A stretch of DNA of 64,000 nucleotides from a bacterium (GCA_021816845.1 JAKAWT010000002.1:141724-205723), one strand, 5' to 3'; shown: positions 16,060-55,785, numbered from the stretch's first letter. Notes: generated from the letters alone by a model not told the origin. Numbers and translations are program-made.

Positions 16060-17409
16060 TTATAAGTTGCTTACCAATTGCTGATACAAAGCAACGTATT
16101 TTTCTGCAGATCTACCCCAAGAAAAATCTTCATTCATTGCTGTTTGTATCATTTCATCCCATTTTGGGGTATTGAACATGGATAATGCCTCTTTTAGAGT
16201 GTTTACTAAACTCAATGGGGAATATTCTTCAAATGTAAATCCAGATACCAAACCTTCTACTGAGTCCTTAAGTCCTCCAGTCGATCTTACAATAGGCAGT
16301 GTTCCATACTTCATTGCAATCATTTGTGTTAATCCAGATGGTTCATATCTTGAAGGTATTATTAATGCATCAGCACCTGCATATATTTTTTCAGCTAATG
16401 TTATATCAAAAGTGATATCAGCAAATAAAGAAGGATCCTTTGTTCCTAGAATCTGTAGTTGATCTTCAAAATCTTTGGCTCCTGTACCCAATATGATGAA
16501 ATTTGCATTTTTATTCTCTAGAGTCTCCATAGCTTTGATCAATATATCAATACCTTTCTGATAATCTAGTCTTGATATAAAAGCAAAAAGAGGAGCATCA
16601 GTGCTAAATTTTAAATGTAATTCATCAATAAGTCTTTTTTTGTTTTCCAGTTTTCCCATCTTATAATTGGATATATTATATTTGGAATAAATTTTATCAT
16701 CCTTATCTGGATCATAAATTGAATAATCTATTCCATTCAATATTCCATATAAATTACTTTTTCTAAGTTCCATAAAATCTTCTATCTCTCCTCCGTATTC
16801 TTTTGTTAATATCTCTTTAGCATAAGTAGAAGATACTGTGGATACAATATTTGCATTTAATACACCTTGTAATAGAAGATTAATTTGGTTATCTGATTTA
16901 TCAATCTCTATAGTTGAATGATATTTTTGAAGCTTTAATGCATCTAATATTTCAAGTGAATATCTTCCTTGGTAGGCTGGACCTAAATTATGTATAGTTA
17001 ACATAGTTTTTACATTATTTAATCCTATGTCTTTTAGAAGTATAGGTATTAATGATGTGTGATAATCATTTATATGGACAATATCTACTCTTCCAAATTT
17101 TTCATCTTTTATGTCTTGAACTACCTTTTGTGAAAACATTGCAAATCTTATAGGGTCATCTGGATATCCATAAACGTTATCTCTTGATGAAAAATATTCT
17201 GGTATATCTATATAATTAATTTTTACATCTGAACCAGGGATTGTTGCAGGCTGTGGTGTAGGTATTATTTTATATTTAGGTATTACTACTTGTATATTAA
17301 TAAAGTCTAATAAACATTTTGGTAAAGCCCCTGCAACATCTGCAAGACCACCTACCTTTATTATTGGTGCAAGCTCAGATGAAACAAATAAAACATTAAT
17401 TTTGTCCAT
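16060..17409 (-). CDS. glgA: Glycogen/starch synthase (GT5, GlgA-like), paralog a
   Basis: N-terminal KVGGLADVAGALPK (KxGGL motif). GT-B fold length, C-terminal E-x7-E region (SRYEPSGLTQM). Confidence 0.8.
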   Translation of the reverse strand: MDKINVLFVSSELAPIIKVGGLADVAGALPKCLLDFINIQVVIPKYKIIPTPQPATIPGSDVKINYIDIPEYFSSRDNVYGYPDDPIRFAMFSQKVVQDIKDEKFGRVDIVHINDYHTSLIPILLKDIGLNNVKTMLTIHNLGPAYQGRYSLEILDALKLQKYHSTIEIDKSDNQINLLLQGVLNANIVSTVSSTYAKEILTKEYGGEIEDFMELRKSNLYGILNGIDYSIYDPDKDDKIYSKYNISNYKMGKLENKKRLIDELHLKFSTDAPLFAFISRLDYQKGIDILIKAMETLENKNANFIILGTGAKDFEDQLQILGTKDPSLFADITFDITLAEKIYAGADALIIPSRYEPSGLTQMIAMKYGTLPIVRSTGGLKDSVEGLVSGFTFEEYSPLSLVNTLKEALSMFNTPKWDEMIQTAMNEDFSWGRSAEKYVALYQQLVSNL

Positions 17410-18826
17410 GTTTTTTATTATAGCCTATTATTCCTTTTTGTTTCAAATAAAGATTGTTTATTCTTTTTCTGAACTCTTCTGCTCTTTTAAAATTTAATTT
17501 TTCTGCTGATTCAAGCATTTGCTTTTCAAGATGTTTTATTATGCTATCATATTCTTTAGGATCAGCATCATATGATTTAGTTTCAATAATTTCACCAGCT
17601 TCTTCATCAAAATTATTTGCCATTCTATCTATAACTCCTTCTCTTTGCCATGCAAATGCAGTAAATATTATGTCTTTATATAAATTTATTGCCCTTTTTT
17701 TATCTTCATCCTCCAAATCAGGTAAGTTAAGGATACTCTCTCTAAGTTCATATGCTCCCTTTTCTATCATTTCTATACTCCACCATGGTCTTGCTGAAGC
17801 CCACCAATATTGATCGGAATGTATTGCTTTATCAAGGATACTTCGTGCTCTATACCATTGTTTTTCTTTTATACTAAGCTTTCTATTCTTATCATTCAAG
17901 TCGTTAAACCTATATTTTGAGGTACTAACTTTTTCTATTGCAAAATGTGTAAGCTGCCATTGCATTTGATTTACTTTATTATCGCGATTTAACCACCTTT
18001 GGTATGGTTGGTCTTTTAATAGTTCCGTTGGGATTAAAGCCCAAGTAGAGGGAACTATTGATACACTATCTCCAATTTTAAAAGAATCTAGTAGATCCTC
18101 ATATCTTGCAGTTTTGATCTTATCAGACTTAAATATATCCTCAAGTAGTAATTCAAGCCCTGGTCTGTGATGGCCAAATGTTTCTCCATCCATTGCTGTT
18201 GGCAGATAAATATTCTGATTAATCAAGTCTTTTATTTCTGCTAAGAATATATTTCCATTTTCAAGTTGTGCAGATAATATTTTAAAACTGATATCTCTAT
18301 CTCTAAAAAAACCTACCATGTTGGTTCCTTTAATTTTATATAATACGTCATGTTTTATATCACCTTTATCTTTTTCAAAGGCTAACTCATCAAATAACAT
18401 CCATTTATAACCCATCTTTGAAACAACATTAACAACTTTTTCTGATATTCCAAGTTCAGGAGAAAAAAAACCTTTTGGGTTATATAAAGGTCCATATACT
18501 GATTTGTTTATTTTATGGTTTAATTCTATCTGCCTTATTATTTCATCCTCTGGGATTAGTGGAAGGAATGCATGATATGCTGCTGAATCAGTTAATTCTA
18601 TTTGTCCTCTTTCAAGTAATAACTTTATATCCTCAATCAGGTTATAATACTTATATTTTATAAATAACTCTGTAAGTGATGCGTTTATATTTAATGTGAT
18701 TTTACCTTTTGTATTTTCTTTTAAGGTATTTAGAATAACACTATAACTTTCATCTGCTATAAGATCTAGCATTTCTTTTGTTTGAGTGGGTGGTTGATAT
18801 ATGTGTAGAAAATTTGCCCAAATCAT
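17396..18826 (-). CDS. Glycoside hydrolase family 57 protein (alpha-glucan branching/processing), paralog a
   Basis: GH57 region 1 NFLHIYQPPTQ (HxHQP-like), GQIEL, and a candidate nucleophile Glu (FSPELGI) and acid/base Asp (AMDGETFGHH). Overlaps the upstream GT5 by 14 nt. Confidence 0.75.
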   Translation of the reverse strand: MIWANFLHIYQPPTQTKEMLDLIADESYSVILNTLKENTKGKITLNINASLTELFIKYKYYNLIEDIKLLLERGQIELTDSAAYHAFLPLIPEDEIIRQIELNHKINKSVYGPLYNPKGFFSPELGISEKVVNVVSKMGYKWMLFDELAFEKDKGDIKHDVLYKIKGTNMVGFFRDRDISFKILSAQLENGNIFLAEIKDLINQNIYLPTAMDGETFGHHRPGLELLLEDIFKSDKIKTARYEDLLDSFKIGDSVSIVPSTWALIPTELLKDQPYQRWLNRDNKVNQMQWQLTHFAIEKVSTSKYRFNDLNDKNRKLSIKEKQWYRARSILDKAIHSDQYWWASARPWWSIEMIEKGAYELRESILNLPDLEDEDKKRAINLYKDIIFTAFAWQREGVIDRMANNFDEEAGEIIETKSYDADPKEYDSIIKHLEKQMLESAEKLNFKRAEEFRKRINNLYLKQKGIIGYNKKHGQN

Positions 18827-18829
18827 ATA

Positions 18830-20239
18830 TTAATTTTTATTTCCTAAATTTAATTTTTCTTGTTTGATTTCCTCTATCCTAGTTTTTAACTTATCTGCTA
18901 TGTCATACTCTCTATTTTTTGATGCATTGTACATTTCTTTTTCTAATCTTTTTATTGCTTTATCATATCCATTTGGATCTGCTTTTTTATTTGAAATTTC
19001 TTTATTGCGTTCATCAAGAAAAAATTGTGATGATAGTTTTTTTATTTTTCCTTCCCTTTCCCATGCTATGGCAGTTAGAATAATATCTTCATAATATGAT
19101 CTTCCTTTATCTTTGTCTGATTTTTCTGTGTCCGGGACTAAATCGATTACTACTGAAAGGTTATATGCACCTCTTTCAATCATTTCTATATCCCATACAG
19201 GTTTTGCTGATGCAAAAAAGAATTGGTCATGGTATAGGGATTGATCGAGCAAGTATCTCGCTTTTAGCCATGTTTTTTCCCTTTCTTGAAGATAAGTATA
19301 ATCTATATCTACAATATAAGGATCTTCAATTTGATATATAGAATTATACACAGATTTGAATGCTAAATTAAGTAATCTCTGTTGCAATTGATGAATTTTA
19401 TTATCTTTACTCATCCAACGTTCAAAAGAATTTTGTTCATTATATAAAGGTACAGTCCATGTACTTTGGTTAGGTTTTATATCAAATCTTTTTTTAATCT
19501 TAATTATTAAATCTTTAAACAAGATATAGTGTAGAGATTTTTGATTATATAGATATTCAAACATTTTTATATACCCTATTCTTTGATGTCCAAAAGTTTC
19601 TCCATCTTCTCCTGTATATAAGAACTCACCATTTTTTATTTTATTTTCAAATGAAGATATTAAATCTTCTTTCTTCTCCATTTGGGCAGTTAGGATATAA
19701 AAGCTAGATGCTCTATCTCTTATAAAAATATCTAGTCCATCGTTTTTATATATACATGAATGATCTATCTTTCCATTTATTGCAGTTTCATCAAGTAGTA
19801 TGTATTTATAGCCTGAAGATTCTAATCTAATATTTTTGATAACATCAAAAGATTTTTGGTCATATGCCATTGCTGTAGGTAGAAAACCTAATGGTTCATA
19901 GTTTTTAAAATACATTTTATTAATTTTTCTATTTAACAATATTTGCCTTTCAATTTCTTTTTTAGGTAACATTGGAAGGAACGCTTGGTAAGCTGGAGTG
20001 TCTATAAATTCTATTTGCCCTTGTAATGATAATTGAGATATTGTATCAAGTAAGCCAGTATACCCTAATTTATATAAAGTTTCTGTTAAACCTGCATTTA
20101 TTACAAGATTAATTTTTGCATTCTTATTATTTTTAATAACATTAAATAGAGGTATATAGCTTTCTTCAATAACCTTCTTTAGGATTTCATCTTTTTGTGT
20201 AGGTGGTTGATAAATGAATATCAGATTAGTCCAGTTCAT
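18830..20239 (-). CDS. Glycoside hydrolase family 57 protein, paralog b (possibly catalytically altered)
   Basis: Same architecture as paralog a (NLIFIYQPPTQ, GQIEF, EDGETFGHQ). The position aligned to the nucleophile Glu reads PTAMA. Confidence 0.7.
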   Translation of the reverse strand: MNWTNLIFIYQPPTQKDEILKKVIEESYIPLFNVIKNNKNAKINLVINAGLTETLYKLGYTGLLDTISQLSLQGQIEFIDTPAYQAFLPMLPKKEIERQILLNRKINKMYFKNYEPLGFLPTAMAYDQKSFDVIKNIRLESSGYKYILLDETAINGKIDHSCIYKNDGLDIFIRDRASSFYILTAQMEKKEDLISSFENKIKNGEFLYTGEDGETFGHQRIGYIKMFEYLYNQKSLHYILFKDLIIKIKKRFDIKPNQSTWTVPLYNEQNSFERWMSKDNKIHQLQQRLLNLAFKSVYNSIYQIEDPYIVDIDYTYLQEREKTWLKARYLLDQSLYHDQFFFASAKPVWDIEMIERGAYNLSVVIDLVPDTEKSDKDKGRSYYEDIILTAIAWEREGKIKKLSSQFFLDERNKEISNKKADPNGYDKAIKRLEKEMYNASKNREYDIADKLKTRIEEIKQEKLNLGNKN

Positions 20240-20241
20240 GA

Positions 20242-21768
20242 TTAGAATATTTGATAGTTCATCCCTAATTTGTCTATTGGTCCATTAGTTATATTCATTG
20301 CTCTTATATATATATCTATATATTTCCTTGCAGAATTCTCCCAAGAGAAATCTGTTTTCATTGCGGATTCTACTATTTTTCTCCATAACCCTATATTATT
20401 ATACTGATCTATCGCCCTTACTATCGTACCATATAAGGAATATGGATTATAATTATCAAATAAGAATCCATTACCAGAAATATTCTCCATATTAAAATCT
20501 GTAATAGAATCTGATAATCCACCTATGTTTCTTGCAATTGGAATACAACCATATCTCATTGATTCCATTTGTGTTATTCCTGATGGTTCAAATCTTGAAG
20601 GTATTAGTATCATATCGGCGCCAGAAAATACTTTTTTAGGCAAAATAAAATCAGCCATCAAATGAGTTCCAACCCTTTTTGGGTATTTCTTTTCTAATTT
20701 CTGAAAGTATGATATGTATCTCCCATCTCCACTTCCTATTATTACAAACTGTATATCTTTGTATTCTAGAAAAAGTGGATCCAGTATTTCTATTACAAGA
20801 TCTAATCCTTTCTGATCATCTAATCTTGTAACCATAGAAAGTATAGGGCCATTAGATTTTTCTAAGTCAAATTCTTTTTGTAGAGCAACTTTATTAATAT
20901 GTCTTTTTATTGAACTTCTCCAATCATAATTTTCTACAACATTTATGTCTGTTTCAGGATTCATATATGTATAATCTATACCATTCAATATCCCTACTAA
21001 TTTAGTTCTAACTTCCTTTAAAAGATGTTCTAGTCCTTCTGAGTATTCAGGAGTTAAAATTTCCTTGGAGTATTTTTCAGAAACTGTTGATACTATATCA
21101 GCATACATTATTGCCCTTCTCATAAAATTTTGTTTTTGTAATGCTGGATCAAACAAATCTGCTATCTCTCCTCTCCCATTATCAAAATCTAGATCATTGG
21201 TATTTTTATGATCAAATAATCCTTGATGTACTATATTGTGTATACTAAATACTGTAGATATCTTTGATAGTTTTGGGTCATCTTTATAATTTACTTTTAA
21301 CAAATTTGGGATGTGTCCTGTATGCCAATCTGCACAATTTATTACATCTGGAACCCATGTAGATATCTTTAGAAACTCCATTATTGATAATGATAAAAGA
21401 AGAAATCTGATATGATCATCAGAATATCCATATACATTTGATCTAGTTTCATAGAACTCCTTGTTCTCTATAAAATATACAATAGGTTCTTCTTCACTTT
21501 CTTGGTAAACTTTTATATTGCAAATTATATCTCTTTGTGATTGTGTTGGTATCTTCAATCCTTCATATAACATTTTAAGGGGATACCTTTCTTCGTCAAT
21601 ATTCCCATATTTAGGCATTATTATTCTTGCATCTACACCTTCTTTTTTTAATGCTTTTGTAAGAAAATATGATACCTGTCCAAGACCACCTACGCCAGCG
21701 TAAGGGTAAACTTCAGCAGAGGTATATAATAATTTTATATTGTTCCTAATTTTCATTAAAGAATTCAT
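20242..21768 (-). CDS. GT5 glycogen-synthase-like glycosyltransferase, paralog b
   Basis: N-terminal AGVGGLGQV (the KxGGL motif with Lys replaced). GT-B C-terminal half with SRFEPSGITQM. Confidence 0.7.
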   Translation of the reverse strand: MNSLMKIRNNIKLLYTSAEVYPYAGVGGLGQVSYFLTKALKKEGVDARIIMPKYGNIDEERYPLKMLYEGLKIPTQSQRDIICNIKVYQESEEEPIVYFIENKEFYETRSNVYGYSDDHIRFLLLSLSIMEFLKISTWVPDVINCADWHTGHIPNLLKVNYKDDPKLSKISTVFSIHNIVHQGLFDHKNTNDLDFDNGRGEIADLFDPALQKQNFMRRAIMYADIVSTVSEKYSKEILTPEYSEGLEHLLKEVRTKLVGILNGIDYTYMNPETDINVVENYDWRSSIKRHINKVALQKEFDLEKSNGPILSMVTRLDDQKGLDLVIEILDPLFLEYKDIQFVIIGSGDGRYISYFQKLEKKYPKRVGTHLMADFILPKKVFSGADMILIPSRFEPSGITQMESMRYGCIPIARNIGGLSDSITDFNMENISGNGFLFDNYNPYSLYGTIVRAIDQYNNIGLWRKIVESAMKTDFSWENSARKYIDIYIRAMNITNGPIDKLGMNYQIF

Positions 21769-22837
21769 TTTCTATTGCCTTTTTTGTATCTTCTGGAAAC
21801 CTATCTATCACAAATCTTCCCATCAATTCTGAATATGCAAGATCAGATTGACGAGGCATTATCATTATGTACATTCCAGCATTGGTTTTACTGTTTGTTC
21901 TTTTTCCTAAAAAATTAATATTTAAGCTTCTAATTCCAGCATTAACATCTTCTCCATCCTTATTTTTAAATTTCATTAAAGAAAGAGCTCTTAATACTTT
22001 ATACAGTATATTCGATAACTCTTCAATATAATCTTCATTTAATGAAAATAAATTTCCTATTTCTCTATTTTTTGCTTGTATTTGTATTTCATCTTTGAAT
22101 CTTGGTGAAAATGGCGTAAATACTATAAAATTATCTGTCTCATGTATGACTAGACTGCTAGATCTTAAAGCTTGATTATATAAATCTATATAGTCTACAC
22201 CCTTTTTGAAAAACTTATTTATGATATCCTCATATCTATCATATAAGGGAAAGAAACTATTTTTATATACAGCTCCAATCTGTGCATGTAAATGAGGTTG
22301 ACTTGCACCTGCAGGATATTTTTCTTTATCAGTACCAAAATTGATTCCTGCTGCAATCTGATTAACATTATCTTTTAGAGTAATTTCTTTAGATCTTTTT
22401 GATAATGCAGAAATGAGCCCAAATATGTGTTTTCTCTCTATATCTTTTATATCATCTATATGATCTTTCAAAACTATAAGATCATGAAATCCTGGATTGA
22501 ATGCAAAAGGATTTGGGGCTTGATAAACTCCCCATTCATCATACTCCACAATAGGGTGAGCAACATCATCAAGATTGTCAAATAAACAGTACCCTTCTTT
22601 GATATCTTCAGGTGTTTTAATATCTGGTTGTGGTCTTTTTGACCTAGAGTATGAAATTAAGGTTGAATGATTTAAAAAAGGATCTACCCTCTCAACTACT
22701 TGATCTGATACGACATTCCCTTTTAGTGTAACCTCTTCTTCAGTTTTCTTTACAAATTCTATAAAGTATGGAGGTGTTTCAGTTATAAGGCTCTGCTTAC
22801 TATCTTCGTTGCTATTAAAAGGTATTGATTTAATCAT
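21746..22837 (-). CDS. HIT-superfamily GalT-like hexose-1-phosphate nucleotidyltransferase / NDP-glucose phosphorylase
   Basis: HxHxQ active-site motif (PHLHAQIGA) typical of galactose-1-P uridylyltransferase branch-III HIT enzymes. Overlaps GT5b by 23 nt and is first gene of the minus-strand glycogen operon. Confidence 0.6.
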   Translation of the reverse strand: MIKSIPFNSNEDSKQSLITETPPYFIEFVKKTEEEVTLKGNVVSDQVVERVDPFLNHSTLISYSRSKRPQPDIKTPEDIKEGYCLFDNLDDVAHPIVEYDEWGVYQAPNPFAFNPGFHDLIVLKDHIDDIKDIERKHIFGLISALSKRSKEITLKDNVNQIAAGINFGTDKEKYPAGASQPHLHAQIGAVYKNSFFPLYDRYEDIINKFFKKGVDYIDLYNQALRSSSLVIHETDNFIVFTPFSPRFKDEIQIQAKNREIGNLFSLNEDYIEELSNILYKVLRALSLMKFKNKDGEDVNAGIRSLNINFLGKRTNSKTNAGMYIMIMPRQSDLAYSELMGRFVIDRFPEDTKKAIENEFFNEN

Positions 22838-24569: not shown

Positions 24570-24938
24570 TTATGCAACTATAAAAATGGATATAAGTAGT
24601 ATTATAAATACAGTTAAAGTAGTTATAGATAATATATAATCTTTATTTTTTAAAAATAGAAAAATTGACAGTAACACTCTTGTAACTGGAGTAATGATCA
24701 AAATTATAATAGGAATAAATAACAAAGTTAAAAATGAAAAGTGTCCAAATATAAAATTCAGAAAAGTGAAAGTATTTTGATAAGATCCTGTGTAATAATT
24801 CACACTACCTCTAATAAATATTAAAATAAGATCAATCAGTGCTAAAGATATACTTATCAACACTCCAGTTCTAAGTGTATAACCTATTATTATTTCCATA
24901 TCTTTATTTCTAGGTTTATCAACTTTCGATTTATTCAT
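24570..24938 (-). CDS. Small membrane protein (DUF1634-like), partner of TauE/SafE
   Basis: 122 aa, multi-TM. Overlaps the upstream TauE gene stop by 4 nt. This family commonly accompanies DUF81/TauE. Confidence 0.4.
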   Translation of the reverse strand: MNKSKVDKPRNKDMEIIIGYTLRTGVLISISLALIDLILIFIRGSVNYYTGSYQNTFTFLNFIFGHFSFLTLLFIPIIILIITPVTRVLLSIFLFLKNKDYILSITTLTVFIILLISIFIVA

Positions 24939-25771
24939 AATATATTCATTGCTCTTAAAATCATTTCTATTGCTATAACTAATATAACTAATATAAATAT
25001 TTTCTTTAAATATACATTAGATGTGTTACCAATTAATTTAGTTCCATAATATGATCCCACAAATACACCAATCATTACAGGTATTGCAATATATGGATCT
25101 ATGTATCCATTTATAAGATATATGAATGCACTGGCAGCTGCAGTCACACCAATCATCATGTTAGATGTTGTAGTTGATACTTTCATCGGAAGTTTCATAA
25201 CATCATCTAAGGCCAAAACTTTAAACACTCCACTCCCTATTCCCAAAAGTCCAGATATTAATCCGGCTATATACATTATTACAAACCCTCCTGGTATATT
25301 TGTTACATTGTAGTGCAAAGTTTTATTTTGTTTTTTATCATAATATGATGATGATAATTTTAAATAGTTCGCAATATTATCATTTTTAACATTTTCATCA
25401 ACTTCTTGATCCCTATTTTTTAAGAGAGGAAGTATTGATATTAAAAGAACAAATGCAAATATATAAAGTAAAACAGTAGTATTTAATATACCCATGATTT
25501 CTGCTCCAGTTATTGCTCCTATAGTTGTTGCAATCTCTAAAAGCATGCCTACTCTTATGTTTATTATTTTATCTTTTAGATAAACTGATGCAGCAGAAGA
25601 AGATGTTGCTATTACAGATATGATGCTTGCTCCAATAGCAATTTTAATATTTATATGAAATATGAGGATAAGAATAGGTATTATTACAATTCCACCACCA
25701 ATTCCTACTAATGCTCCTATAATGCCTGCAAGGATGGAAAATACAATTATCCCAAAATAAAAAATTAACAT
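24935..25771 (-). CDS. TauE/SafE (TSUP, DUF81) family sulfite/anion exporter
   Basis: Duplicated 4-TM halves with glycine-rich motifs (LVGIGGGIVIIPIL ... LLGIGSGVFKV). Confidence 0.7.
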   Translation of the reverse strand: MLIFYFGIIVFSILAGIIGALVGIGGGIVIIPILILIFHINIKIAIGASIISVIATSSSAASVYLKDKIINIRVGMLLEIATTIGAITGAEIMGILNTTVLLYIFAFVLLISILPLLKNRDQEVDENVKNDNIANYLKLSSSYYDKKQNKTLHYNVTNIPGGFVIMYIAGLISGLLGIGSGVFKVLALDDVMKLPMKVSTTTSNMMIGVTAAASAFIYLINGYIDPYIAIPVMIGVFVGSYYGTKLIGNTSNVYLKKIFILVILVIAIEMILRAMNIL

Positions 25772-25802: not shown

Positions 25803-28541
25803 TCAAATATGATTAATATTAAAAATATTATAATTCGTATTAATATCATACTTCATAAAAATGTTAAGTGTTTCAACTGATTGTTTTAGTCTCCCTGTCT
25901 TGAAATATAATAGAGATAAAATAGCGTTATTATTATCTAGATTATTTGTGAAATATACCATGTTATTACCGTAGAAATTAGTTTGAAATATTATTTTTTG
26001 ATTATATATTTGTTTTTGTATTTTATTATTATGAATCTCAAAATATGGTATCAATGCTGCATATAAAACCAATGATTCTTGATAATCACGTATTTGACCA
26101 TTTATTGAATACTGTGAAAATATTATGTGAGAATCATTCCATTGATTAATGAAAAATTTAGTTTTCTTAATATAATTATATGCTTCCTTACTATTATTTA
26201 AATAATAGTCTAGACCAGCGTTCCATAATACCTGATAAGCATCAAGAGCAAATCTAGTTGAAATATTTGACTCACCAAATCTTCCATTATTGTTAATAAT
26301 ACAGTAATTCACTGGTAAGTATATATTTTTATTATTTAGTGTAGAACAATTATTTATAACTCTATATGATGTATTTACTATGTTACTCCAGTCGTGTGAA
26401 GGATCAACAAAAGCAAAAATCCTGTATTGGTAAGGAGCTAAATATGAAGGATTGAGTATGTAGGAATTATTATTCTTAGCCCAATCACCAGCGATGACAT
26501 ATCTTTGATTATTTATTTTGACGGTTTCATTTTTCCATATGCTATTTAGGATAGCTTTTGCCTTAATAATATAATAGCTTTTTCTCCACTTATATGCTGC
26601 TAATATTAATGAATATGCAATATTTTGATCTGCATTTACAGAAGATTTTGTATTTATAACTCCATAACTTCCATTTGCATGTTTTCCCCATGAACTCACA
26701 AAAAGATTGTAATGTGGTGCTGAAGCATCTCCAGTCTTAGTCATATTTCCATATGTCCAATTTAAGATATTATTAAACATATTTTGTTTATTCATATATA
26801 AAGTATTTAGGAGTGCATATGATTGGAATTTGGAGGAAGTGATATTTGATTTTGTAGAAACATTGCCTATATAGTTTAAATATTTAATTTTGTAATATGA
26901 CCAAAATTCATTTAAAATTAAATTTTCTGTATCTAAGTTTGACTTGTAATATATGTTACTAGTTAATTTACCTGTTAACACGGGTATATTAGTCATATTT
27001 ATATTATTTTCTAAAGTAAATGTTTTAACTTTAGTTTTATTAAATTTTAGAATCTCATAATCTTTGTTATTTATAATTTTGTAATAATAATTGTAAAAAT
27101 TTTTATCAGATATCCCATATAATTGAGATTTTGGATAATGTTTATTAATTATAATATAATTAGTATAAATCCATGGTTCCTTTGTGAGATATTTGTTGTT
27201 ATTGATTTCATTTGTTGTTATTAAAAATTTATAATTTATTTTTATATTTTGTAATAATTCTGAATCATCATTAATATTTGCAAGGACGAATCCACTTTTA
27301 TAATCTTTTTGAAATTTATCTACTGTAGTTTTGAAATAACTTCCATAATTATGTTTATATATTTTATTATGGTTGTTTAAATAATAAGATTGATATTCTA
27401 TATTTAATAATGAGAATATAATCACTAATATAAACAATGTGTATTTAAAATATCTTTTTAGATATATATTATTTTTATAATCTATTGATGCAAAAAATAT
27501 TGCTGGAGGAATCGCAATAAATGGAAGTAGTAGCAAAGTTAATTCTCTGTTTGGATTTTGTAAAAATATAGATAATACTAAAAATAATAATGGTATTAAA
27601 ACTAGTATCAATATGATTATTGAGTTATGTTTGTTAGTTTTTTTTATCCTAAAGAAAAAGCATGCATAAGAAAATATTGAAAGTATAATAAAGAATAGTC
27701 CATATATTGAGACTATATTTTCTGCCAAATGAATTAGATTTATTAATATATTTTGTGAATTTATTACTAGATTATAGTTGATGTTTCCAATGAAATTTTT
27801 ATAAATATAATAGTTATAAATTAATATATACAATATTGGTATTATTGCAATAAACAAGAATAGTATAATTGTTGCTTCAATTTTTTTAATGTCTTCGTAT
27901 TTACATTTTTTTTCAAAGTAAATAAATAATGGGATTATAATTATATATATTATTGATATAATATTTAATAGAATTAATCCTGCAGTTAAAACACTTATTA
28001 GGAATAATTTCATCTTTCTATTAGTATTATTCCATGTTATTAGATAATAGAAGAGCATTATGGATAGCAATGAGTAAATTATAAAATGTGACCCTGAAGA
28101 AACAAAATATAATATATTGGGATTGAATGTAATTATTAAAGATGATAGTAACCCAGCAATTTTATTTTTAGTTATATATTTTATTAGAATATATAAATAT
28201 ACATTCAAAATTGAAAAAAATATTATATTTGGTATTGCTAAAGAAATTCCCGAATTTAATAAATATTGATTTATAGAAAATATTGAGAATATTATATTAT
28301 ATAGTAAGTGATAAGATCCTAATTGTAGTGACCCAGTATAAATTTTATCTAAGAAAATTTTAGTATTTTCTAATTGTATGTTTGAATAATTGCTTAAAAT
28401 TAGTAAATTACTCTTTACTAAAAAATATGTATAAAATGAGGATATTAGAAAAGAATATATAAATATAATCCTCTTTATAGGTGATTTGTTAATATTTAAT
28501 TTTTTTGAACTTAATTCTTTAATTTTATATGCTATATTCAT
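25803..28541 (-). CDS. Large polytopic membrane protein with C-terminal extracytoplasmic GH8-like (BcsZ-type endoglucanase) domain
   Basis: About 14 TM helices in the first 400 aa. C-terminal about 350 aa contain GH8-like motifs (SSWGKHANGSYGV; NADQNIAYSLILAAYKW; ILNPSYLAPYQYRIFA). Start overlaps the stop of the upstream GT2 by 4 nt. Confidence 0.5.
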   Translation of the reverse strand: MNIAYKIKELSSKKLNINKSPIKRIIFIYSFLISSFYTYFLVKSNLLILSNYSNIQLENTKIFLDKIYTGSLQLGSYHLLYNIIFSIFSINQYLLNSGISLAIPNIIFFSILNVYLYILIKYITKNKIAGLLSSLIITFNPNILYFVSSGSHFIIYSLLSIMLFYYLITWNNTNRKMKLFLISVLTAGLILLNIISIIYIIIIPLFIYFEKKCKYEDIKKIEATIILFLFIAIIPILYILIYNYYIYKNFIGNINYNLVINSQNILINLIHLAENIVSIYGLFFIILSIFSYACFFFRIKKTNKHNSIIILILVLIPLLFLVLSIFLQNPNRELTLLLLPFIAIPPAIFFASIDYKNNIYLKRYFKYTLFILVIIFSLLNIEYQSYYLNNHNKIYKHNYGSYFKTTVDKFQKDYKSGFVLANINDDSELLQNIKINYKFLITTNEINNNKYLTKEPWIYTNYIIINKHYPKSQLYGISDKNFYNYYYKIINNKDYEILKFNKTKVKTFTLENNINMTNIPVLTGKLTSNIYYKSNLDTENLILNEFWSYYKIKYLNYIGNVSTKSNITSSKFQSYALLNTLYMNKQNMFNNILNWTYGNMTKTGDASAPHYNLFVSSWGKHANGSYGVINTKSSVNADQNIAYSLILAAYKWRKSYYIIKAKAILNSIWKNETVKINNQRYVIAGDWAKNNNSYILNPSYLAPYQYRIFAFVDPSHDWSNIVNTSYRVINNCSTLNNKNIYLPVNYCIINNNGRFGESNISTRFALDAYQVLWNAGLDYYLNNSKEAYNYIKKTKFFINQWNDSHIIFSQYSINGQIRDYQESLVLYAALIPYFEIHNNKIQKQIYNQKIIFQTNFYGNNMVYFTNNLDNNNAILSLLYFKTGRLKQSVETLNIFMKYDINTNYNIFNINHI

Positions 28542-30064
28542 TTGTTCACAAGATTTACAATAGGAATTAATGTCTTATTTTCATTTATAATATGCTTTCC
28601 ATGAGTAGTTTTTTCCCAAGAGTAAGGATTGATCACAATTTGATACATGGCTCTAATAGTAGCTATAGAAAGTACTATCCAGTAAATTGGAGATAAAAGT
28701 ATATATTTAACAATTGAAAATCTATCTCTAGAATATGATCCTATCAAATTTAGATATGTAAAGATCAAGTTACCCAGTACAAATGATATAATAGAGATAA
28801 TAAGTATCGGTTCTGGGAAGGATTCCTTAATAAGTGGTGATGATGTGATAAACCATATTAGAAGTAGTACCCAATAAATAAAATTAAATGCATTTACAAT
28901 AACTGTTCCAGGGACTGTTATTAGAAATCCAATAAAATTTTTCCATCCTCCAAGTTCATTTTTAGTTCTTATAGGTTCTCTTAGGTTAACTATACTAGTT
29001 TGTATGAACCCTTTCATCCATCTTGTCCTTTGTTTGATCCAACTATTTATATCTGACGTTGCTTCCTCTTTACTCATAGAATCTAATATACTTGTTCTAT
29101 AACCATTTCTCCTTAATCTAATACCTATATCACAGTCTTCTGCTACATTATAAGGATCCCAACCTCCTATATCTTTTATTGCAGATATTCTAAAGTGTGT
29201 ACTATGGCCTGATAAAGGGATTGGAAAATCAAATTTTTGTAATCCAGGTAAGAATAAATCATAGTAAAATGAAAATTCGCTATTGAATAAACCAGTTATT
29301 ATATTTTGATCTGCATTATAATGATCTAATCTTGTTTGAAAACATGCAATGTCTGGTTTCTTTAAGAATGCTAAATATGCTTTTTTAAGTTGATTTTTAT
29401 CTGGGATTATTTCCGCATCATAAATTACTAAAAACTCTCCTTTTAATTCTTGTAATGCTACATTTAAAGCTTTGGGTTTAGTTTTGGGTTCTACATTTGG
29501 TAGTATAAGTTTTCTAAAATTAGATGGGAAGTTTGCCCTATCTATTGCAGCTATAGTCTCATCATCATATTCTTCTAATGTTATTATAAATTCTACTTTG
29601 TCTTTAGGATAATCAATATCCATCATAGCTTTTTTGATTTGGTTAACAACCTCACTTTCTTTATATAATGGTATAATTACTGAATAATATGGTAAATCAT
29701 TCTCATTGATTAAGCCTATATCTTTATTAGATATATGTATAAAATCTGTTGTCTTAGATTTTAATACTACAATCACTTTGAAAATCATGAAAATGAAATA
29801 AGTTATTGCTATAAATGACGAGATATATATGTATATAGAAATATTACTGAAGTATGATAACAATGTTAAAGAAATTAATATTATGGCAATAATTATAGCT
29901 AAATTTTCTATTGGTTCTTTGTAAATATGTCTTTTTGAAGAATAGATTAATGGTAAATATAAATAATCTTGAGTATTTTTATAATTTACTGTATAGAATT
30001 TTTCTAGTCTAGGAATAGACATTATTTTTTTTACTATATTCTTTAGATTATTATATATAACCAT
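28538..30064 (-). CDS. Processive family-2 glycosyltransferase (cellulose/chitin/hyaluronan-synthase-like beta-glycan synthase)
   Basis: N-terminal TMs, GT-A core with DAE (D,D,D) motifs and the processive-synthase signature QRTRW (QxxRW), then C-terminal TM bundle. No PilZ domain evident. Confidence 0.7.
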   Translation of the reverse strand: MVIYNNLKNIVKKIMSIPRLEKFYTVNYKNTQDYLYLPLIYSSKRHIYKEPIENLAIIIAIILISLTLLSYFSNISIYIYISSFIAITYFIFMIFKVIVVLKSKTTDFIHISNKDIGLINENDLPYYSVIIPLYKESEVVNQIKKAMMDIDYPKDKVEFIITLEEYDDETIAAIDRANFPSNFRKLILPNVEPKTKPKALNVALQELKGEFLVIYDAEIIPDKNQLKKAYLAFLKKPDIACFQTRLDHYNADQNIITGLFNSEFSFYYDLFLPGLQKFDFPIPLSGHSTHFRISAIKDIGGWDPYNVAEDCDIGIRLRRNGYRTSILDSMSKEEATSDINSWIKQRTRWMKGFIQTSIVNLREPIRTKNELGGWKNFIGFLITVPGTVIVNAFNFIYWVLLLIWFITSSPLIKESFPEPILIISIISFVLGNLIFTYLNLIGSYSRDRFSIVKYILLSPIYWIVLSIATIRAMYQIVINPYSWEKTTHGKHIINENKTLIPIVNLVNK

Positions 30065-30297
30065 TTTCTATAAGGTAGTAATACATAGATATATTATTAT
30101 TTATACAATATAAATTAATATTTAGTAATAAACAATAAGTCGTAATTATATATTATTATGAGATAAAATTCAACCTTGTATTATATATAATAAGTGGCCA
30201 TAAATATGAAATCTGTTTTTCAGAATATATATTTATTAGTTTCAATTGATTATTTTAAAAATTGAGATTTTAGAATATTGATTATATAGTGAATATA

Positions 30298-31554: not shown

Positions 31555-33060
31555 ATGAATAGATATCTTAAAATATTCCCTTTTTTGTTAACAATACTTT
31601 TAAGACTACCTGCATTTTATGAACCTCATTGGTATGAAGATACAGGTATGTATTCAGCTATAGGTGTGGCTTTAAACCATGGTGCGATATTATATAATAC
31701 TGTATTTGATAATAAAACACCTTTTATTTATTATCTATATGCTTTGTATGAACGTATTCCATTATCTTTGACACTTGTTTATCAATCTGTTTCTTTAGTT
31801 CTTGCTCTACTTACCCAATACTTTATTTTTAAAATAGCTCAACTAAAATTTGGTAATAAAGTGGCATTGATATCATCAATATTGTTTGCTCTACTTATAG
31901 GTAGTGTTTTTTTAGAAGGAACATTAGCTAACGCAGAAAACTATTATATGTTCTTTTCTGTACTATCTATATATATAATTCTGAAGAATGTTCCTGATAT
32001 AAGTTTTCTAAAATTATATATCGCAGGTTTAATTATAGGCCTTGGATTAATGTTCAAAGTGTCAGTTATATTTGATGCATTCTTTATTGTTGTATATTTC
32101 TTCTTCATATTTGATTTTAGAAAATACTTCAAATCGTCATTTTTTTACACCTTAGGTTTGTTCACCCCACTAAGTATTTTTCTAATTTATGAATTTTTTA
32201 CAAATAACCTAGTGAATACTATATATGCGATATTTCTATATAATTTTGGTTATGTTGAAAAAGCAAAACCATTCCTTGGATTATCAATAGTAGAATTTCA
32301 AACTATATTACTTTTTCTAATTCTATTTTTATTTTTTGTATTTTATAAAAAAAGGAAAATTAGAGAAATAAATCTTTTTATATATTTATGGGTTACTGTA
32401 GATCTATACAGTGTATATCTATCAGGAAGACCCTATTTCCATTATCTTCTCCAAATAGCTTTACCACTATGTATTCTACTCTCGTACTATATATACAGGA
32501 TATATCAAGAAAAATGGTATAAAAAAATACTTATTATATTTCTTGTTAGTATATCTATATATCTTGGAGAACTATATTTTTTTAGATCAGAGCTCTCATG
32601 GCAAATATTTCAACAACTACAGTTTAAATATGACTATTATCCTAATTCTTATGCATATATGTTAGGTCGAGAGAAGAGTTCACAGTATAACTCTATTTTT
32701 ATATATAATACCAATGTTATATTTGAGAAAACTGAACAAAATGCAAATATAGTATATCAAATTGCCGATACATTAAAATCACTAAATGTTCAAGGTAAGA
32801 GAATATTTATAATGGGTAATTTTCCTTGGGATTACTATATGACAAAATCTATCCCTGGTGAAAAATACGTAGTAGATTTCCAGATAATAGGAAAGAAAAG
32901 ACAAAATACTGTTATGTCAGAAATACAAAAGAACAAACCATATCTTATACTCTATTATAACGATAGTTATGGATTTTCTGGATTAACAAACTTTATTAAT
33001 AGGTACTACAGATTAGCAAAAATCTCTAAGGGAGCCTACTTTTATGTAATTAAAAGTTAG
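31555..33060 (+). CDS. Polytopic GT-C-type membrane glycosyltransferase (GT39/GT83/ArnT-like)
   Basis: 501 aa, more than 10 TMs. Acidic first-loop motif (HWYEDTG) reminiscent of the GT-C DxD/ExD loop. Confidence 0.4.
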   Translation: MNRYLKIFPFLLTILLRLPAFYEPHWYEDTGMYSAIGVALNHGAILYNTVFDNKTPFIYYLYALYERIPLSLTLVYQSVSLVLALLTQYFIFKIAQLKFGNKVALISSILFALLIGSVFLEGTLANAENYYMFFSVLSIYIILKNVPDISFLKLYIAGLIIGLGLMFKVSVIFDAFFIVVYFFFIFDFRKYFKSSFFYTLGLFTPLSIFLIYEFFTNNLVNTIYAIFLYNFGYVEKAKPFLGLSIVEFQTILLFLILFLFFVFYKKRKIREINLFIYLWVTVDLYSVYLSGRPYFHYLLQIALPLCILLSYYIYRIYQEKWYKKILIIFLVSISIYLGELYFFRSELSWQIFQQLQFKYDYYPNSYAYMLGREKSSQYNSIFIYNTNVIFEKTEQNANIVYQIADTLKSLNVQGKRIFIMGNFPWDYYMTKSIPGEKYVVDFQIIGKKRQNTVMSEIQKNKPYLILYYNDSYGFSGLTNFINRYYRLAKISKGAYFYVIKS

Positions 33061-52707: not shown

Positions 52708-55700
52708 ATGATAGTATCACCTGCAATGTATAAGTATAAAATATTTATAACGTTACTTGTAATATTATTCCTTGCCCCATTATTACACACTAATGCTTTT
52801 GCACAAAGCTATACACCTTCTGAGGTTAGATCCATGAGTGTAGATTCCAAAATAGTTCCAACAGGAAATGGTACTGGTTACTATATAGTATCGAACCAAG
52901 GGATAGTTCAATCTCTAGGATCTGCTAAATATTATGGAGGATTAAATAATATAGCTGTAGTACCAAATCATAATGTTGTAGATATGGTTGTAACACCAAA
53001 TGATGGAGGTTATTATATTTTAACTCAAGACGGAGGTGTTTATAACTTTGGAAATGCTCAGTTCTATGGATCTCTATATAACGTACAGACTGTACCAGTA
53101 AGAGTTGCTGTAAGCATGAAACTTACAACAACAGGAAATGGATATTATATAATGACACAAGAAGGTGGTGTATACACCTTTGGTGATGCAGTGTTCCAAG
53201 GGTCTGCATATACTTACCAGAATTCTCCTACAGTTAATGCTGTATCTTTCCAAGTAACAAATGGAGGTTACTATATCCTAGAGCAAAATGGTGGTGTATA
53301 TACTTTTGGTAGTGCACCTTTCTATGGATCAATGTTTAATGTAGTGGGGAATATTAACAGAACATCAATTGGTATGCAGTTAACTTCTCAAGGTTATATG
53401 ATACAAACTTCTGATGGTGGGGAGTATACATTTGGTAATGCACAGTTTTATGGAACTATCTTTAATATTGTAAATCCTCAATCAACAGTAGTTTCAGATA
53501 CAGCAGTACTTCCAGGAGATGGAGGTTATTACGTTCTTGTATCCAGTGGAGCAGTATATACATTTGGTGATGCAATATATCTTGGTAATTACACAACTTT
53601 GGGAATTTCTAATATAGGGGTTATTACAAATACAGGACCTTTAACGGTTACTGGAGATACTGCTTTGAATGGCAATCTATCTGTTATGGGTGTTATTACA
53701 GCACCATTACTTGATATAAACAATATCAATATATTAAGCAATATATATTTTACAGGTTCAAATCCACAGATAGATACAGGATCAAATTCTCTTACTTTTA
53801 ATGGTAATGGTTCTACAGGTAGTGTATGTTTCTTTAAATGTGCAAATAACGTATCTTCAGGAGGTTCCCTATCACTTCTTGGTGGAGAGTTACTTGGTGG
53901 AAATCTTAATGTAGGTGGGAGTAGTACTAATATACTAAATGGTAATACTGAGTTTAAAGATAACCTAACAGTATCTGGTAATACAAATACTTCTGGTATA
54001 ACGAATACTGGTCTTCTTACAAACAATGGTAATACTATGCTGAATGGAACTTTGAATATAACAGGAAATACAACTTTAAGTAGTAATTTACAGGTTAGCG
54101 GTAATACAAATACTCACGGTATAACGAATACAGGTTCATTGTTTAATGGTGGAAATTTATTTGTTGCTGGTAATGTATTTGTTAGAAATAATCTAGAGGT
54201 ACTCCATAATGTACATATAAATCATAATCTAAAAGTTAAAGGTCATACCAAGACTCATGGTATATATAATAAAGGAACGTTGAGGAATAATGGCATTATA
54301 GAAGCTTTTGGTACTAGAAGAACTAGATATACTTCTTTGGTTTCATTTGGTAAAACAAAGTTATTTGGTGAATTGAATGTTATCGGTCAAACTACAACTC
54401 GAGGTATAAAGAATAATGGGAATATTTCTAATAGTGGTGATTTATCAGTTCATGGAAACGTTGCATTCTTTTCTGATATGGAAGTAGCTGGTAGTACAAC
54501 TATTGGAGGCATATTAAATGTTACAGGCCAATCAACATTTGTTGGTAATGTTACTTTAGCTCAAGACCTCAATGTTGGAGGAATAACAACTACTAATGGG
54601 TTGATAAATAATGACAATTCGGGAATCACAGGTAATTTAAATGTTGGAGGTACTGGAACATTTGGAGGTAATTTAACTCTGACAGGCACCAATCCTCAAG
54701 TCAACTCTACAGGGTCAAATAATCTGACATTAAATGGTAATAGTAATACAGGAGATACATGTTTCTACTCATGCGGTAATAATATAATACCTAACGGATC
54801 TATATCATTCTTGGGTGGAGCCTTACTTGGAGGAAATCTTAATGTAGGTGGCAGCAGTACAAACATATTTAATGGAAATACAGAATTTAAAAATAATATT
54901 ACTGTATCTGGAAGTACAATAACTAATGGTGTAACTAATAATGGTTTGCTTACAAATAACGGGAATATTACATCTACAGGTACAGGAGTATTTTCTTCAT
55001 TTGTATCAGCATCTTTATATCAAATAGCTGGTGTTACAGTATTATCTAATGCAGGTACACAGAATATATTCTTAGGTCAGGCTGCAGGATTAAGTAATAC
55101 TACTGGATCTAATAACTCATTTATAGGTATGCAGGCAGGACAATATAACACGACAGGATCTAATAACACATTCGTGGGTCAAGATGCAGGATCAGGTTCA
55201 GGAATTCAACTTAATAATTCTACAGCAATAGGATACCAGGCATTAGTATCAGAGAGTAATGCAGTGGTACTTGGAGGTATAGGTTCAAATGCAGTAAATG
55301 TAGGTATAGGTACATCTACACCAAATGCAACATTAGAAATTACTGGGGTATCTGGTCAATCCCAAAATTATTTTGATATAACATCAAATGGAGCACCATC
55401 TGGTAATGTATTTTCTATAGATATGAATGGAAATGTAACTATATCTGGTCATATAATAGTACAAGGTGTAACACCAACATTAGTTGAATATCATGGTAAT
55501 ACAGCATCCTTGTCTGATGCCACAGATACATCAGGAGTCCTTCAGTTACAACTGAATGGTATAGCTGTTAGTGGATCAGAAGTTGAGGTTGTATTTGCAA
55601 AACCTTATCAAATTCCTCCTAATGTTGTAATATCACCTGATAATCCTCAAGCTGCGTTAGCATTTTCTAACCAAGATGCTTATGTCATATCATCTAAGAC

Positions 55701-55785
55701 AGGTTTTACTATAGTATTTGGTAGTTTCATTGGACCTCTACCTGCTCTATATGATTATCTTTGGACTTATCAAGTAATACAATAA
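52708..55785 (+). CDS. Large secreted surface protein: signal peptide, six-blade beta-propeller repeat region, duplicated Cys-containing beta-helical modules, and C-terminal phage-tail-fibre-like domain
   Basis: Signal peptide (LLVILFLAPLLHTNAFA). Six repeats of about 45 aa of the form GGYYILTQDGGVYTFGxAxFYGS. Two about 95-aa modules share TGSNxLTxNGN...C(F/Y)xxC...LLGGNLNVGGSSTNIxNGNTEFKxN. C-terminal GxxNT(T)GSNN(S/T)F(I/V)G repeats plus SNAVVLGG...VGIGTSTPNATLEITG resemble tail-fibre / endosialidase-chaperone-type domains. Confidence 0.6.
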   Translation: MIVSPAMYKYKIFITLLVILFLAPLLHTNAFAQSYTPSEVRSMSVDSKIVPTGNGTGYYIVSNQGIVQSLGSAKYYGGLNNIAVVPNHNVVDMVVTPNDGGYYILTQDGGVYNFGNAQFYGSLYNVQTVPVRVAVSMKLTTTGNGYYIMTQEGGVYTFGDAVFQGSAYTYQNSPTVNAVSFQVTNGGYYILEQNGGVYTFGSAPFYGSMFNVVGNINRTSIGMQLTSQGYMIQTSDGGEYTFGNAQFYGTIFNIVNPQSTVVSDTAVLPGDGGYYVLVSSGAVYTFGDAIYLGNYTTLGISNIGVITNTGPLTVTGDTALNGNLSVMGVITAPLLDINNINILSNIYFTGSNPQIDTGSNSLTFNGNGSTGSVCFFKCANNVSSGGSLSLLGGELLGGNLNVGGSSTNILNGNTEFKDNLTVSGNTNTSGITNTGLLTNNGNTMLNGTLNITGNTTLSSNLQVSGNTNTHGITNTGSLFNGGNLFVAGNVFVRNNLEVLHNVHINHNLKVKGHTKTHGIYNKGTLRNNGIIEAFGTRRTRYTSLVSFGKTKLFGELNVIGQTTTRGIKNNGNISNSGDLSVHGNVAFFSDMEVAGSTTIGGILNVTGQSTFVGNVTLAQDLNVGGITTTNGLINNDNSGITGNLNVGGTGTFGGNLTLTGTNPQVNSTGSNNLTLNGNSNTGDTCFYSCGNNIIPNGSISFLGGALLGGNLNVGGSSTNIFNGNTEFKNNITVSGSTITNGVTNNGLLTNNGNITSTGTGVFSSFVSASLYQIAGVTVLSNAGTQNIFLGQAAGLSNTTGSNNSFIGMQAGQYNTTGSNNTFVGQDAGSGSGIQLNNSTAIGYQALVSESNAVVLGGIGSNAVNVGIGTSTPNATLEITGVSGQSQNYFDITSNGAPSGNVFSIDMNGNVTISGHIIVQGVTPTLVEYHGNTASLSDATDTSGVLQLQLNGIAVSGSEVEVVFAKPYQIPPNVVISPDNPQAALAFSNQDAYVISSKTGFTIVFGSFIGPLPALYDYLWTYQVIQ

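Follow-up and report, generated by a model that had tools for sequence, protein, structure and literature searches.

Synthase-dependent exopolysaccharide (EPS) systems, such as those for cellulose, poly-N-acetylglucosamine (PNAG), alginate and hyaluronan, consist of a glycosyltransferase family 2 (GT2) synthase and a co-polymerase (for example BcsB, PgaD or Alg44). Here we describe a locus on a 64,000-nucleotide stretch of bacterial DNA (GCA_021816845.1, JAKAWT010000002.1:141724-205723; referred to as the window, with positions counted from its first letter), in which a gene for a BcsA-like GT2 is followed by a gene for a 912-aa protein that joins a GT-C-fold membrane domain to a glycoside hydrolase family 8 (GH8) domain. 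The two genes form a chromosomal operon in a tiny-genome bacterium of the Patescibacteria (candidate phyla radiation, CPR), and the locus probably constitutes a reduced system, in which an active, cyclic di-GMP (c-di-GMP)-independent BcsA-like synthase is accompanied by a doubly degenerate, non-catalytic, glycan-binding GT-C-GH8 subunit. To our knowledge, a GT-C-fold partner that ties a processive synthase to lipid-linked-sugar chemistry falls outside the above catalogue of systems.

The Bcs system (BcsA-BcsB-BcsZ-BcsC) has in common with the window locus a membrane GT2 with D, DxD, ED and QxxRW motifs, BcsA being its nearest solved relative, and a hydrolase-family domain on the outer side of the membrane, BcsZ being the structure nearest to the window GH8. 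It differs in that the window module lacks PilZ, BcsB and BcsC, that its GT2 has ~6 rather than 8 transmembrane (TM) helices and carries PLSGHS for FFCGS, and that its partner has a GT-C fold with a fused, membrane-anchored GH8 domain devoid of the catalytic Glu. The Listeria pssA-E/pssZ and Bacillus subtilis ydaJ-N loci likewise combine a synthase-type GT2 with a GH8-fold protein in the absence of an outer membrane; these loci encode BcsB-like co-polymerase subunits, GGDEF-I-site c-di-GMP receptors and a separate GH8 protein, and have no GT-C partner. Three-component systems of extracytoplasmic glycosylation (a GtrB/ArnC/DPMS-type GT2, the GtrA flippase and a GT-C enzyme such as GtrII, ArnT, YfhO or PMT) resemble the locus in the GT-C fold of the partner, and relatives of the window locus have DPMS/GtrB/ArnC-like domains fused or adjacent to the module, with GtrA in one of them. 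However, those systems have neither a BcsA-like synthase nor a glycoside hydrolase, whereas the window GT-C domain has lost its outer-face residues and the window has no polyprenyl-phosphate-sugar synthase or GtrA.

Further likenesses are found in three other systems. The Streptomyces CslA-GlxA-CslZ system for an apical beta-(1,4)-glycan (PMC9040799) also has a monoderm cellulose-synthase-like GT2 without BcsB and a membrane-associated GH6 glucanase beside it (CslZ, proposed to open a path for the glycan), and CPR relatives of the window locus have an adjoining GH6 gene as well; in contrast, the window lacks the GlxA oxidase, a lytic polysaccharide monooxygenase and GH6, while the Streptomyces cluster lacks a GT-C partner and GH8. 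CcsZABHI, a Gram-positive cellulose-synthase locus of clostridia (PMC7710045), shares a non-BcsB membrane partner with an extracellular glycan-binding domain (putative in our case) and a membrane-tethered glycoside hydrolase, but CcsA has a PilZ domain, CcsB is a 2-TM CBM11-like protein and the hydrolase is an active GH5 enzyme. Finally, the c-di-GMP-activated MshEN-GT2 protein NfrB of Escherichia coli (PMC8669469) is a GT2 EPS synthase under the control of MshEN, a domain that non-CPR members of the window family also carry, but in NfrB this domain is C-terminal and the partners are NfrA and YbcH, while the window GT2 has no MshEN.

The two-gene locus

The features of the locus, all on the minus strand, are the following:

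30065..30297 (-): 233-bp AT-rich intergenic stretch 5′ of the GT2 gene, likely promoter region
28538..30064 (-): GT2 synthase gene, 508 aa
29018..29032 (-): QRTRW motif of the GT2, aligning with QRIRW of E. coli BcsA
28538..28541 (-): ATGA stop/start overlap of the two genes, translational coupling
25803-28541 (-): gene for the 912-aa GT-C-GH8 protein
27372..28541 (-): GT-C-fold membrane domain, residues 1-390, ~11 TM helices, N-terminus predicted inside
26982..27344 (-): alpha/beta juxtamembrane domain, residues 400-520, predicted extracytoplasmic, common to stand-alone partner proteins
25932..26936 (-): GH8-fold (BcsZ-like) domain, residues 536-870, by Pfam, BcsZ model and fold match

An earlier reading of the window, made from the sequence only, had described the two genes and their overlap, and its coordinates, strand and lengths were verified. 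The same 4-bp overlap of GT2 and partner genes also occurs in loci L001-L004. The protein is no assembly artefact, since 8 independently assembled contigs carry an identical 912-aa sequence. The operon is surrounded by housekeeping genes (tRNA synthetases, thioredoxin reductase, endonuclease III, exonuclease VII), with genes for TrxR, TauE and DUF1634 as its immediate neighbours; the genome has a GC content of 22-33%, and the nearest relatives are metagenome-assembled genomes (MAGs) of Patescibacteria. Upstream of the GT2 gene, a TTGAAT-17-TATAAT match is located at 30173-30145, which is weak evidence for a promoter as such matches are not enriched over shuffled sequences, and a scan for promoters and terminators (96 sites versus 78±9 expected) is uninformative in AT-rich DNA.

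A GT2 and GT-C pair conserved across phyla

A word-indexed search with the GT2 yielded 1015 matches, and a scan of one genome per species revealed more than 596 GT2 loci. Sequence identity was 55-60% across Parcubacteria, Saccharibacteria, Peribacteria, Doudnabacteria and others (50-61% to CPR homologues), and 36-43% in Bacillota (Paenibacillus, Cohnella, Sporolactobacillus, Sulfobacillus), Actinomycetota (Actinoplanes, Nocardioides, Salinibacterium and others), Chloroflexota, Omnitrophota and other phyla. Using local hidden Markov models (HMMs), a partner was detected in 66 of 84 fetched loci, at least 48 of which have it as the gene directly following the GT2, and many of the remaining loci are truncated contigs; the window 912-aa protein itself matched the partner HMM at an E-value of 9e-156. 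The conserved unit is a GT2 gene followed by a GT-C partner gene, across Patescibacteria, Bacillota, Actinomycetota and Chloroflexota. When the 912-aa protein or the partner alignment served as query, word-indexed searches returned only 3 and 7 matches, respectively, because low-complexity AT-rich sequence saturates the candidate list, and the survey of partner and GH8 domains was therefore based on an exhaustive search of representatives together with the GT2 genome scan. Apparent GT2-partner fusions in the high-GC actinobacterial loci L053, L068, L072 and L076 proved to be stop-to-stop extensions of the open reading frame (ORF) in another frame and were not counted.

The GH8 domain is an add-on of CPR-type loci, occurring in 11 of the fetched loci (7 with a partner fusion and 4 with GH8 encoded by the next gene), all within the 50-61% band of GT2 identity and one of them labelled Gammaproteobacteria. 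While the fusion had at first been regarded as an unusual arrangement, the exhaustive search (1.84 billion representatives) revealed a GT-C-type N-terminal domain in 57 of the 151 closest GH8 relatives, so that it is unusual compared to textbook bcs operons yet common in sequence space. One group of these 57 fusions is PMT/PMT_2-like and shows the classical NDE...YTYWYDH motif, and the other is the window's own; three further GH8 relatives are GT2-GH8 fusions. No curated NCBIfam model reached its cutoff for the GT2 or the 912-aa protein, and literature searches found no description of the GT2 and GT-C (and GH8) module; the family appears to be uncharacterised. An EPS paper on Actinoplanes (PMC13390465) was discarded as a description of the module, as it concerns other clusters.

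A number of variants were noted among these relatives. In L010 (2318-6899), the GT2 is followed by two tandem partner paralogues, a stand-alone 570-aa GT-C protein and a 928-aa GT-C-GH8 fusion (P0126), both with an intact residue signature (see below). Other GH8 fusion architectures among the closest relatives (P0142, P0191, P0232, P0252, P0183) comprise the three GT2-GH8 fusions, a 2118-aa protein and, by Pfam, a fusion of a Ser/Thr protein kinase with GH8, which by its N-terminal sequence is probably P0142. Loci L013 and L018, on MAG contigs labelled "uncultured Gammaproteobacteria", have a GT2 57% identical to that of the window and CPR-type partner genes, and the labels of these bins look doubtful.

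Loss of the outer-face signature in the GT-C domain

The membrane domain of the 912-aa protein had been described as having 14 TM helices and as possibly serving in export. Based on the helices of the predicted model, hydrophobicity and the positive-inside rule, we instead counted ~11 TM helices between residues 22 and 386, with everything beyond residue 386 outside. From this predicted topology, which agrees with all GT-C enzymes of known structure, the alpha/beta and GH8 domains would both be extracytoplasmic, as had been anticipated for the latter. Moreover, the N-terminal domain was found to have a GT-C fold, with oligosaccharyltransferases as best matches, and is a homologue of GT-C glycosyltransferases rather than a novel exporter. 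The Pfam models PMT_2 and PMT did not match the window protein and matched 27 and 21, respectively, of 40 homologues. Residues 58-502 are 29% identical to the stand-alone 510-aa protein P0003, which shows a weak PMT_2 match and whose gene directly follows that of a GT2 homologue, again overlapping it by 4 bp.

Seven residues (D52, W77, P79, E153, R193, R333 and Y334) are retained in 39 of 39 other partners from four phyla, whereas the window protein carries Y52, Y77, L79, F153, N193, E333 and L334 at these positions; this loss is confined to the window and its three closest relatives (P0002, P0157 and P0003). The four polar residues among them (D52, E153, R193 and R333) map to the outer side of the membrane, the location of GT-C active sites, and the acidic residue of the first extracytoplasmic loop (EL1), which is Asp in 39 of 43 partner proteins, is Tyr52 in the window. 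Residues E222 (on the cytoplasmic side), N140-P141, G75, W170 and P456 are kept.

In the family at large, the module is associated with homologues of polyprenyl-phosphate glycosyltransferases. An extra N-terminal GT2 domain is present in all eight long (720-800 aa) CPR GT2s, with DPMS (1.4e-26), GtrB (7.5e-21) and ArnC (3e-19) as best PDB matches, and the Amnibacterium partner has an ArnC-like domain (5e-16) at its N-terminus. Furthermore, two genes upstream of its synthase gene, L005 encodes an ArnC homologue of full length (1.2e-49), and the L008 module is flanked by genes for a DPMS-like GT2, a protein of the GtrA family and a sugar-1-phosphate nucleotidyltransferase. No polyprenyl-phosphate-sugar synthase, GtrA or GH6 gene was detectable in the 64-kb window.

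A GH8 domain with the fold kept and catalytic residues changed

The GH8-like nature of the C-terminus was borne out, both sequence blocks originally quoted for it being present. Pfam Glyco_hydro_8 (PF01270) matched residues 536-783 (1.5e-25; 90.4 bits versus a cutoff of 24), and the BcsZ equivalog model NF008305 scored 108 bits over residues 547-868, under its cutoff of 299. The AF2 model, with pLDDT >90 across most of the domain, is an (alpha/alpha)6 barrel that Foldseek matched to BcsZ (9b87/3qxq; E 6e-15, target TM-score 0.77-0.81), and Listeria PssZ (6r2m) was also among the fold matches. Alignment of 142 GH8 domains, numbered after E. coli BcsZ, revealed the following correspondences:

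E55 (proton donor; CelA E95): Lys571, codon 26829..26831 (-); Glu in 125/142
D116: Asn636; Asp in 127/142
W96: Ser616, changed
R246: Gln770, changed
W221: Tyr746, changed
D118: D638, kept
D243 (base): D767, kept

Most aromatics of the cleft are also retained. The 81%-identical ortholog P0002 shares the GH8 changes of the window, including the Lys in the E55 column, whereas other CPR fusions and stand-alone GH8 proteins retain SE(G/S)QSY. BcsZ E55Q and CelA E95Q are inactive mutants that have been used for substrate complexes. A check of the catalytic residues against CelA and BcsZ thus gave a divided outcome, with the base and D638 in place and the proton donor and D116 replaced, and because of these two replacements trimming of the glycan by an active hydrolase is unlikely.

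Purifying selection on both domains

Compared with the L001 ortholog, dN/dS was 0.089 for the GT2, 0.18 for the TM domain and 0.080 for the GH8 domain, versus 0.11-0.13 for neighbouring housekeeping genes, and both the GT-C and GH8 domains are under purifying selection despite their residue losses. These values, together with the recurrence in 8 assemblies, rule out that the 912-aa gene is a decaying pseudogene. The critical substitutions all run from G/C to A/T, a bias consistent with a relaxation of selection for catalysis in an AT-driven genome, while fold and binding remain selected. Since catalytic residues have been lost and both domains nevertheless remain under purifying selection, the 912-aa protein is most likely a non-catalytic subunit.

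Two other explanations would leave one of the domains active. The GT-C domain might work via other residues, transferring a lipid-linked sugar, or polymer en bloc in the manner of an oligosaccharyltransferase (OST) or WaaL, to an envelope acceptor, with the dead GH8 domain serving to bind the acceptor or a glycan, much like the lectin-type domains at the C-terminus of Emb or PglB. The fold matches to oligosaccharyltransferases, the association with polyprenyl-phosphate-sugar synthases at family level, the residues that are kept (E222 and the others above) and the purifying selection would all suit such an enzyme; however, the four outer-face polar residues invariant in the 39 other partners are gone, among them the EL1 Asp, the defining residue of GT-C catalysis, and neither a polyprenyl-phosphate-sugar synthase nor GtrA is present in the window, making this explanation unlikely. 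Alternatively, the 912-aa protein might be an active membrane-tethered endoglucanase of the BcsZ type with the TM domain as export conduit, forming with the GT2 a minimal c-di-GMP-independent machine for synthesis, export and trimming. We consider this quite unlikely, as the fold and BcsZ-like profile match, the retained D638, base D767 and most conserved cleft aromatics, the selection on the GH8 domain and the lack of PilZ or MshEN are outweighed by the replacement of the proton-donor Glu by Lys and of D116 by Asn, by the changes at W96, R246 and W221, by the known inactivity of the E55Q and E95Q mutants, and by a TM domain whose GT-C fold is no known channel.

A BcsA-like synthase with intact motifs

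In the GT2, a cytoplasmic GT-A domain is framed by 2 TM helices at the N-terminus and ~3-4 at the C-terminus. Its motifs KPKALN (196), DAE (216-218), EDCD (309-312) and QRTRW (345-349; also found by the sequence-only reading) align with HAKAGN, DCD, TED and QRIRW of E. coli BcsA, and the DAE variant of the DxD motif is invariant across the family alignment. The protein belongs to a "WDPYNV / KPKALNVA" family, of which it retains every invariant column, with all acidic, basic and Trp motif residues kept. Pfam matches were Glyco_trans_2_3 (1e-24), Glyco_tranf_2_3 (7e-23) and, weakly, Glyco_transf_21 (4e-6), with no match to Cellulose_synt. Among solved structures, BcsA was the best match of the single sequence (4e-16) and the sole synthase matched by a profile of 34 family members (2e-23).

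Nevertheless, the GT2 is not a BcsA ortholog, because its scores against the curated models lie far below cutoff (83 bits against 699 for CelA TIGR03030, 73 bits against 992 for BcsA NF008558), there is no PilZ domain (the chain stops 35 residues past the last TM helix), the FFCGS acceptor-binding motif of BcsA is replaced by PLSGHS in the aligned segment, and Pfam and NCBIfam revealed no BcsB gene among the neighbours of the module. The lack of PilZ and BcsB had been noted correctly. The c-di-GMP independence proposed with it is plausible, since the MshEN sensor of non-CPR relatives is absent from the window GT2. Outside CPR, MshEN c-di-GMP receptor domains were found in 43 of 59 N-terminally extended GT2s.

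As to the MshEN-bearing homologues themselves, the GT2s of L059 (5343-9344; Pelolinea submarina) and of other Chloroflexota and Bacillota loci, which reach ~1300 aa, have their synthase domain preceded by a tandem array of several MshEN domains (5 stretches, 3e-61). Such a c-di-GMP sensor load is unusually heavy for an EPS synthase.

Hydrolase genes other than GH8 also accompany the module: a GH6 gene adjoins it in six CPR loci, besides GH8, and the partner of Amnibacterium carries a fused domain of the GH5 cellulase family. Separately, L004 (2816-6750) and L005 (1-3854) contain a second pair a few kb from the module, with a ~770-aa GT2 (Glyco_trans_2_3) beside a GH18 protein with CBM_5_12, which looks like a chitin-synthase-like enzyme with a chitinase-like protein.

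The GT2 might instead be non-processive, making a glycolipid or lipid-linked primer by chemistry akin to Glyco_transf_21 or HpnI in a module that modifies membrane lipids or a cell-wall component. Although the weak Glyco_transf_21 match, the named NCBIfam families all scoring far under their cutoffs, the PLSGHS acceptor motif and a 55-60% identity across CPR that suggests a housekeeping envelope role would agree with this, it appears improbable in view of the QxxRW and ED motifs, the 2+4 TM architecture and BcsA as only PDB synthase match, the recurrence of the module with endo-acting polysaccharide hydrolases (GH8, GH6, GH5), the existence of GT2-GH8 fusions, and an MshEN control that is typical of EPS synthases. 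That the GH8 protein is catabolic, degrading environmental or host cellulose or chitosan, and sits beside the GT2 by chance is very improbable: GH8 and GH6 are classical cellulase families and CPR bacteria are often polymer fermenters, but the genes are translationally coupled by 4 bp, GT2-partner synteny is kept across phyla, the catalytic Glu is missing and the protein is anchored by an 11-TM GT-C domain.

Proposed function

In our proposed mechanism, the GT2 would polymerise a beta-linked glycan from a UDP-sugar and extrude it via its own TM region. The product would be a beta-1,4-type glycan, this being the substrate class common to GH8, GH6 and GH5, with a beta-1,4-glucan-like polymer as best guess. 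The second gene would encode the obligatory partner of the family, an 11-TM GT-C-fold protein with its C-terminal half outside, which in the window is joined to a GH8 domain resembling BcsZ. In complete systems, a partner with the outer-face residues D52, E153, R193 and R333 probably glycosylates or otherwise processes the emerging polymer with a lipid-linked sugar as donor: a DPMS/GtrB/ArnC-like polyprenyl-phosphate-sugar synthase would supply the sugar, the GT-C domain would modify or transfer the glycan on the outer face, and GH8 and GH6 or GH5 hydrolases would trim it, release it or open its path. In the window lineage, the GT-C constellation and the GH8 equivalents of E55 and D116 are lost and no polyprenyl-phosphate-sugar synthase or GH6 lies nearby, which would leave the 912-aa protein as a non-catalytic extracytoplasmic subunit that might form a complex with the GT2, its retained GH8 cleft binding, guiding or retaining the nascent chain in a BcsB-like role.

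A number of points weigh against this reduced, non-catalytic system. The alignment of the TM domain has only ~20% identity, because of which column assignments, especially those of E153 and R333, could be shifted. The changes E>K, D>N, D>Y and R>N/Q all follow AT pressure in an extremely AT-rich genome, and some may be tolerated rather than meaningful, although the GT2 of the same genome lost no acidic, basic or Trp motif residue. Moreover, a non-canonical catalytic residue could substitute in the GT-C or GH8 domain, and a polyprenyl-phosphate-sugar synthase may sit elsewhere in the genome, outside the window. With regard to the product, GH8-like enzymes act on non-glucan polymers too, as illustrated by PssZ among the fold matches. 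Among the elements of the proposal, the folds, motifs, lost residues, synteny and selection are results of the analyses, and processivity, the product, complex formation and glycan binding are inferred.

Neighbouring genes

At 24570-25771 (-), after a gap of 31 bp, the 912-aa gene is followed by two overlapping genes, one for an exporter of the TauE/SafE family (278 aa, 3e-49) and one for a membrane protein with DUF1634 (122 aa). Synteny of this pair with the module is limited to the closest relatives (L001-L003 and L091) and does not extend to other module loci, and the two genes are probably unrelated to the glycan system. On the opposite strand, ~1.5 kb upstream of the GT2 gene, 31555-33060 (+) encodes a second GT-C protein (501 aa, Pfam PMT_2 2e-11), syntenic in L001 and L002; it was rejected as a partner paralogue since it did not match the partner-family HMMs. 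Just downstream of the locus, 16060-22837 (-) holds an alpha-glucan (glycogen-type) cluster with two GT5/GT1 glycogen-synthase-like and two GH57 genes, placed by synteny with L001 15659-22424, the Pfam matches being those of the orthologous L001 genes. Finally, a 1025-aa ORF at 52708-55785 (+) had no Pfam match at E<=1e-4, and the PADLOC defence models gave no match.

Implications

We tentatively suggest, short of considering it established, that the GT2 and GT-C pair represents a previously unrecognised, phylum-spanning class of synthase-dependent glycan secretion system of monoderm and CPR bacteria, in which a GT-C enzyme that depends on lipid-linked sugars takes the place of BcsB beside a BcsA-like synthase, MshEN takes the place of PilZ outside CPR, and GH8, GH6 or GH5 are accessories. 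The window locus would then be an end-point, with a doubly dead pseudoenzyme that holds the glycan, possibly so that a cellulose-like polymer stays attached to the surface of a cell living as an episymbiont. Conservation of the pair extends from Patescibacteria to Paenibacillus, Actinoplanes and Anaerolineae, and because these include culturable, genetically tractable members with MshEN-based c-di-GMP control, the GT2 and GT-C hypothesis is directly testable. The window protein itself offers a clean natural case of a two-domain pseudoenzyme under purifying selection, and for CPR bacteria, about whose envelopes and attachment to hosts little is understood, the module suggests a conserved glycan at the cell surface.

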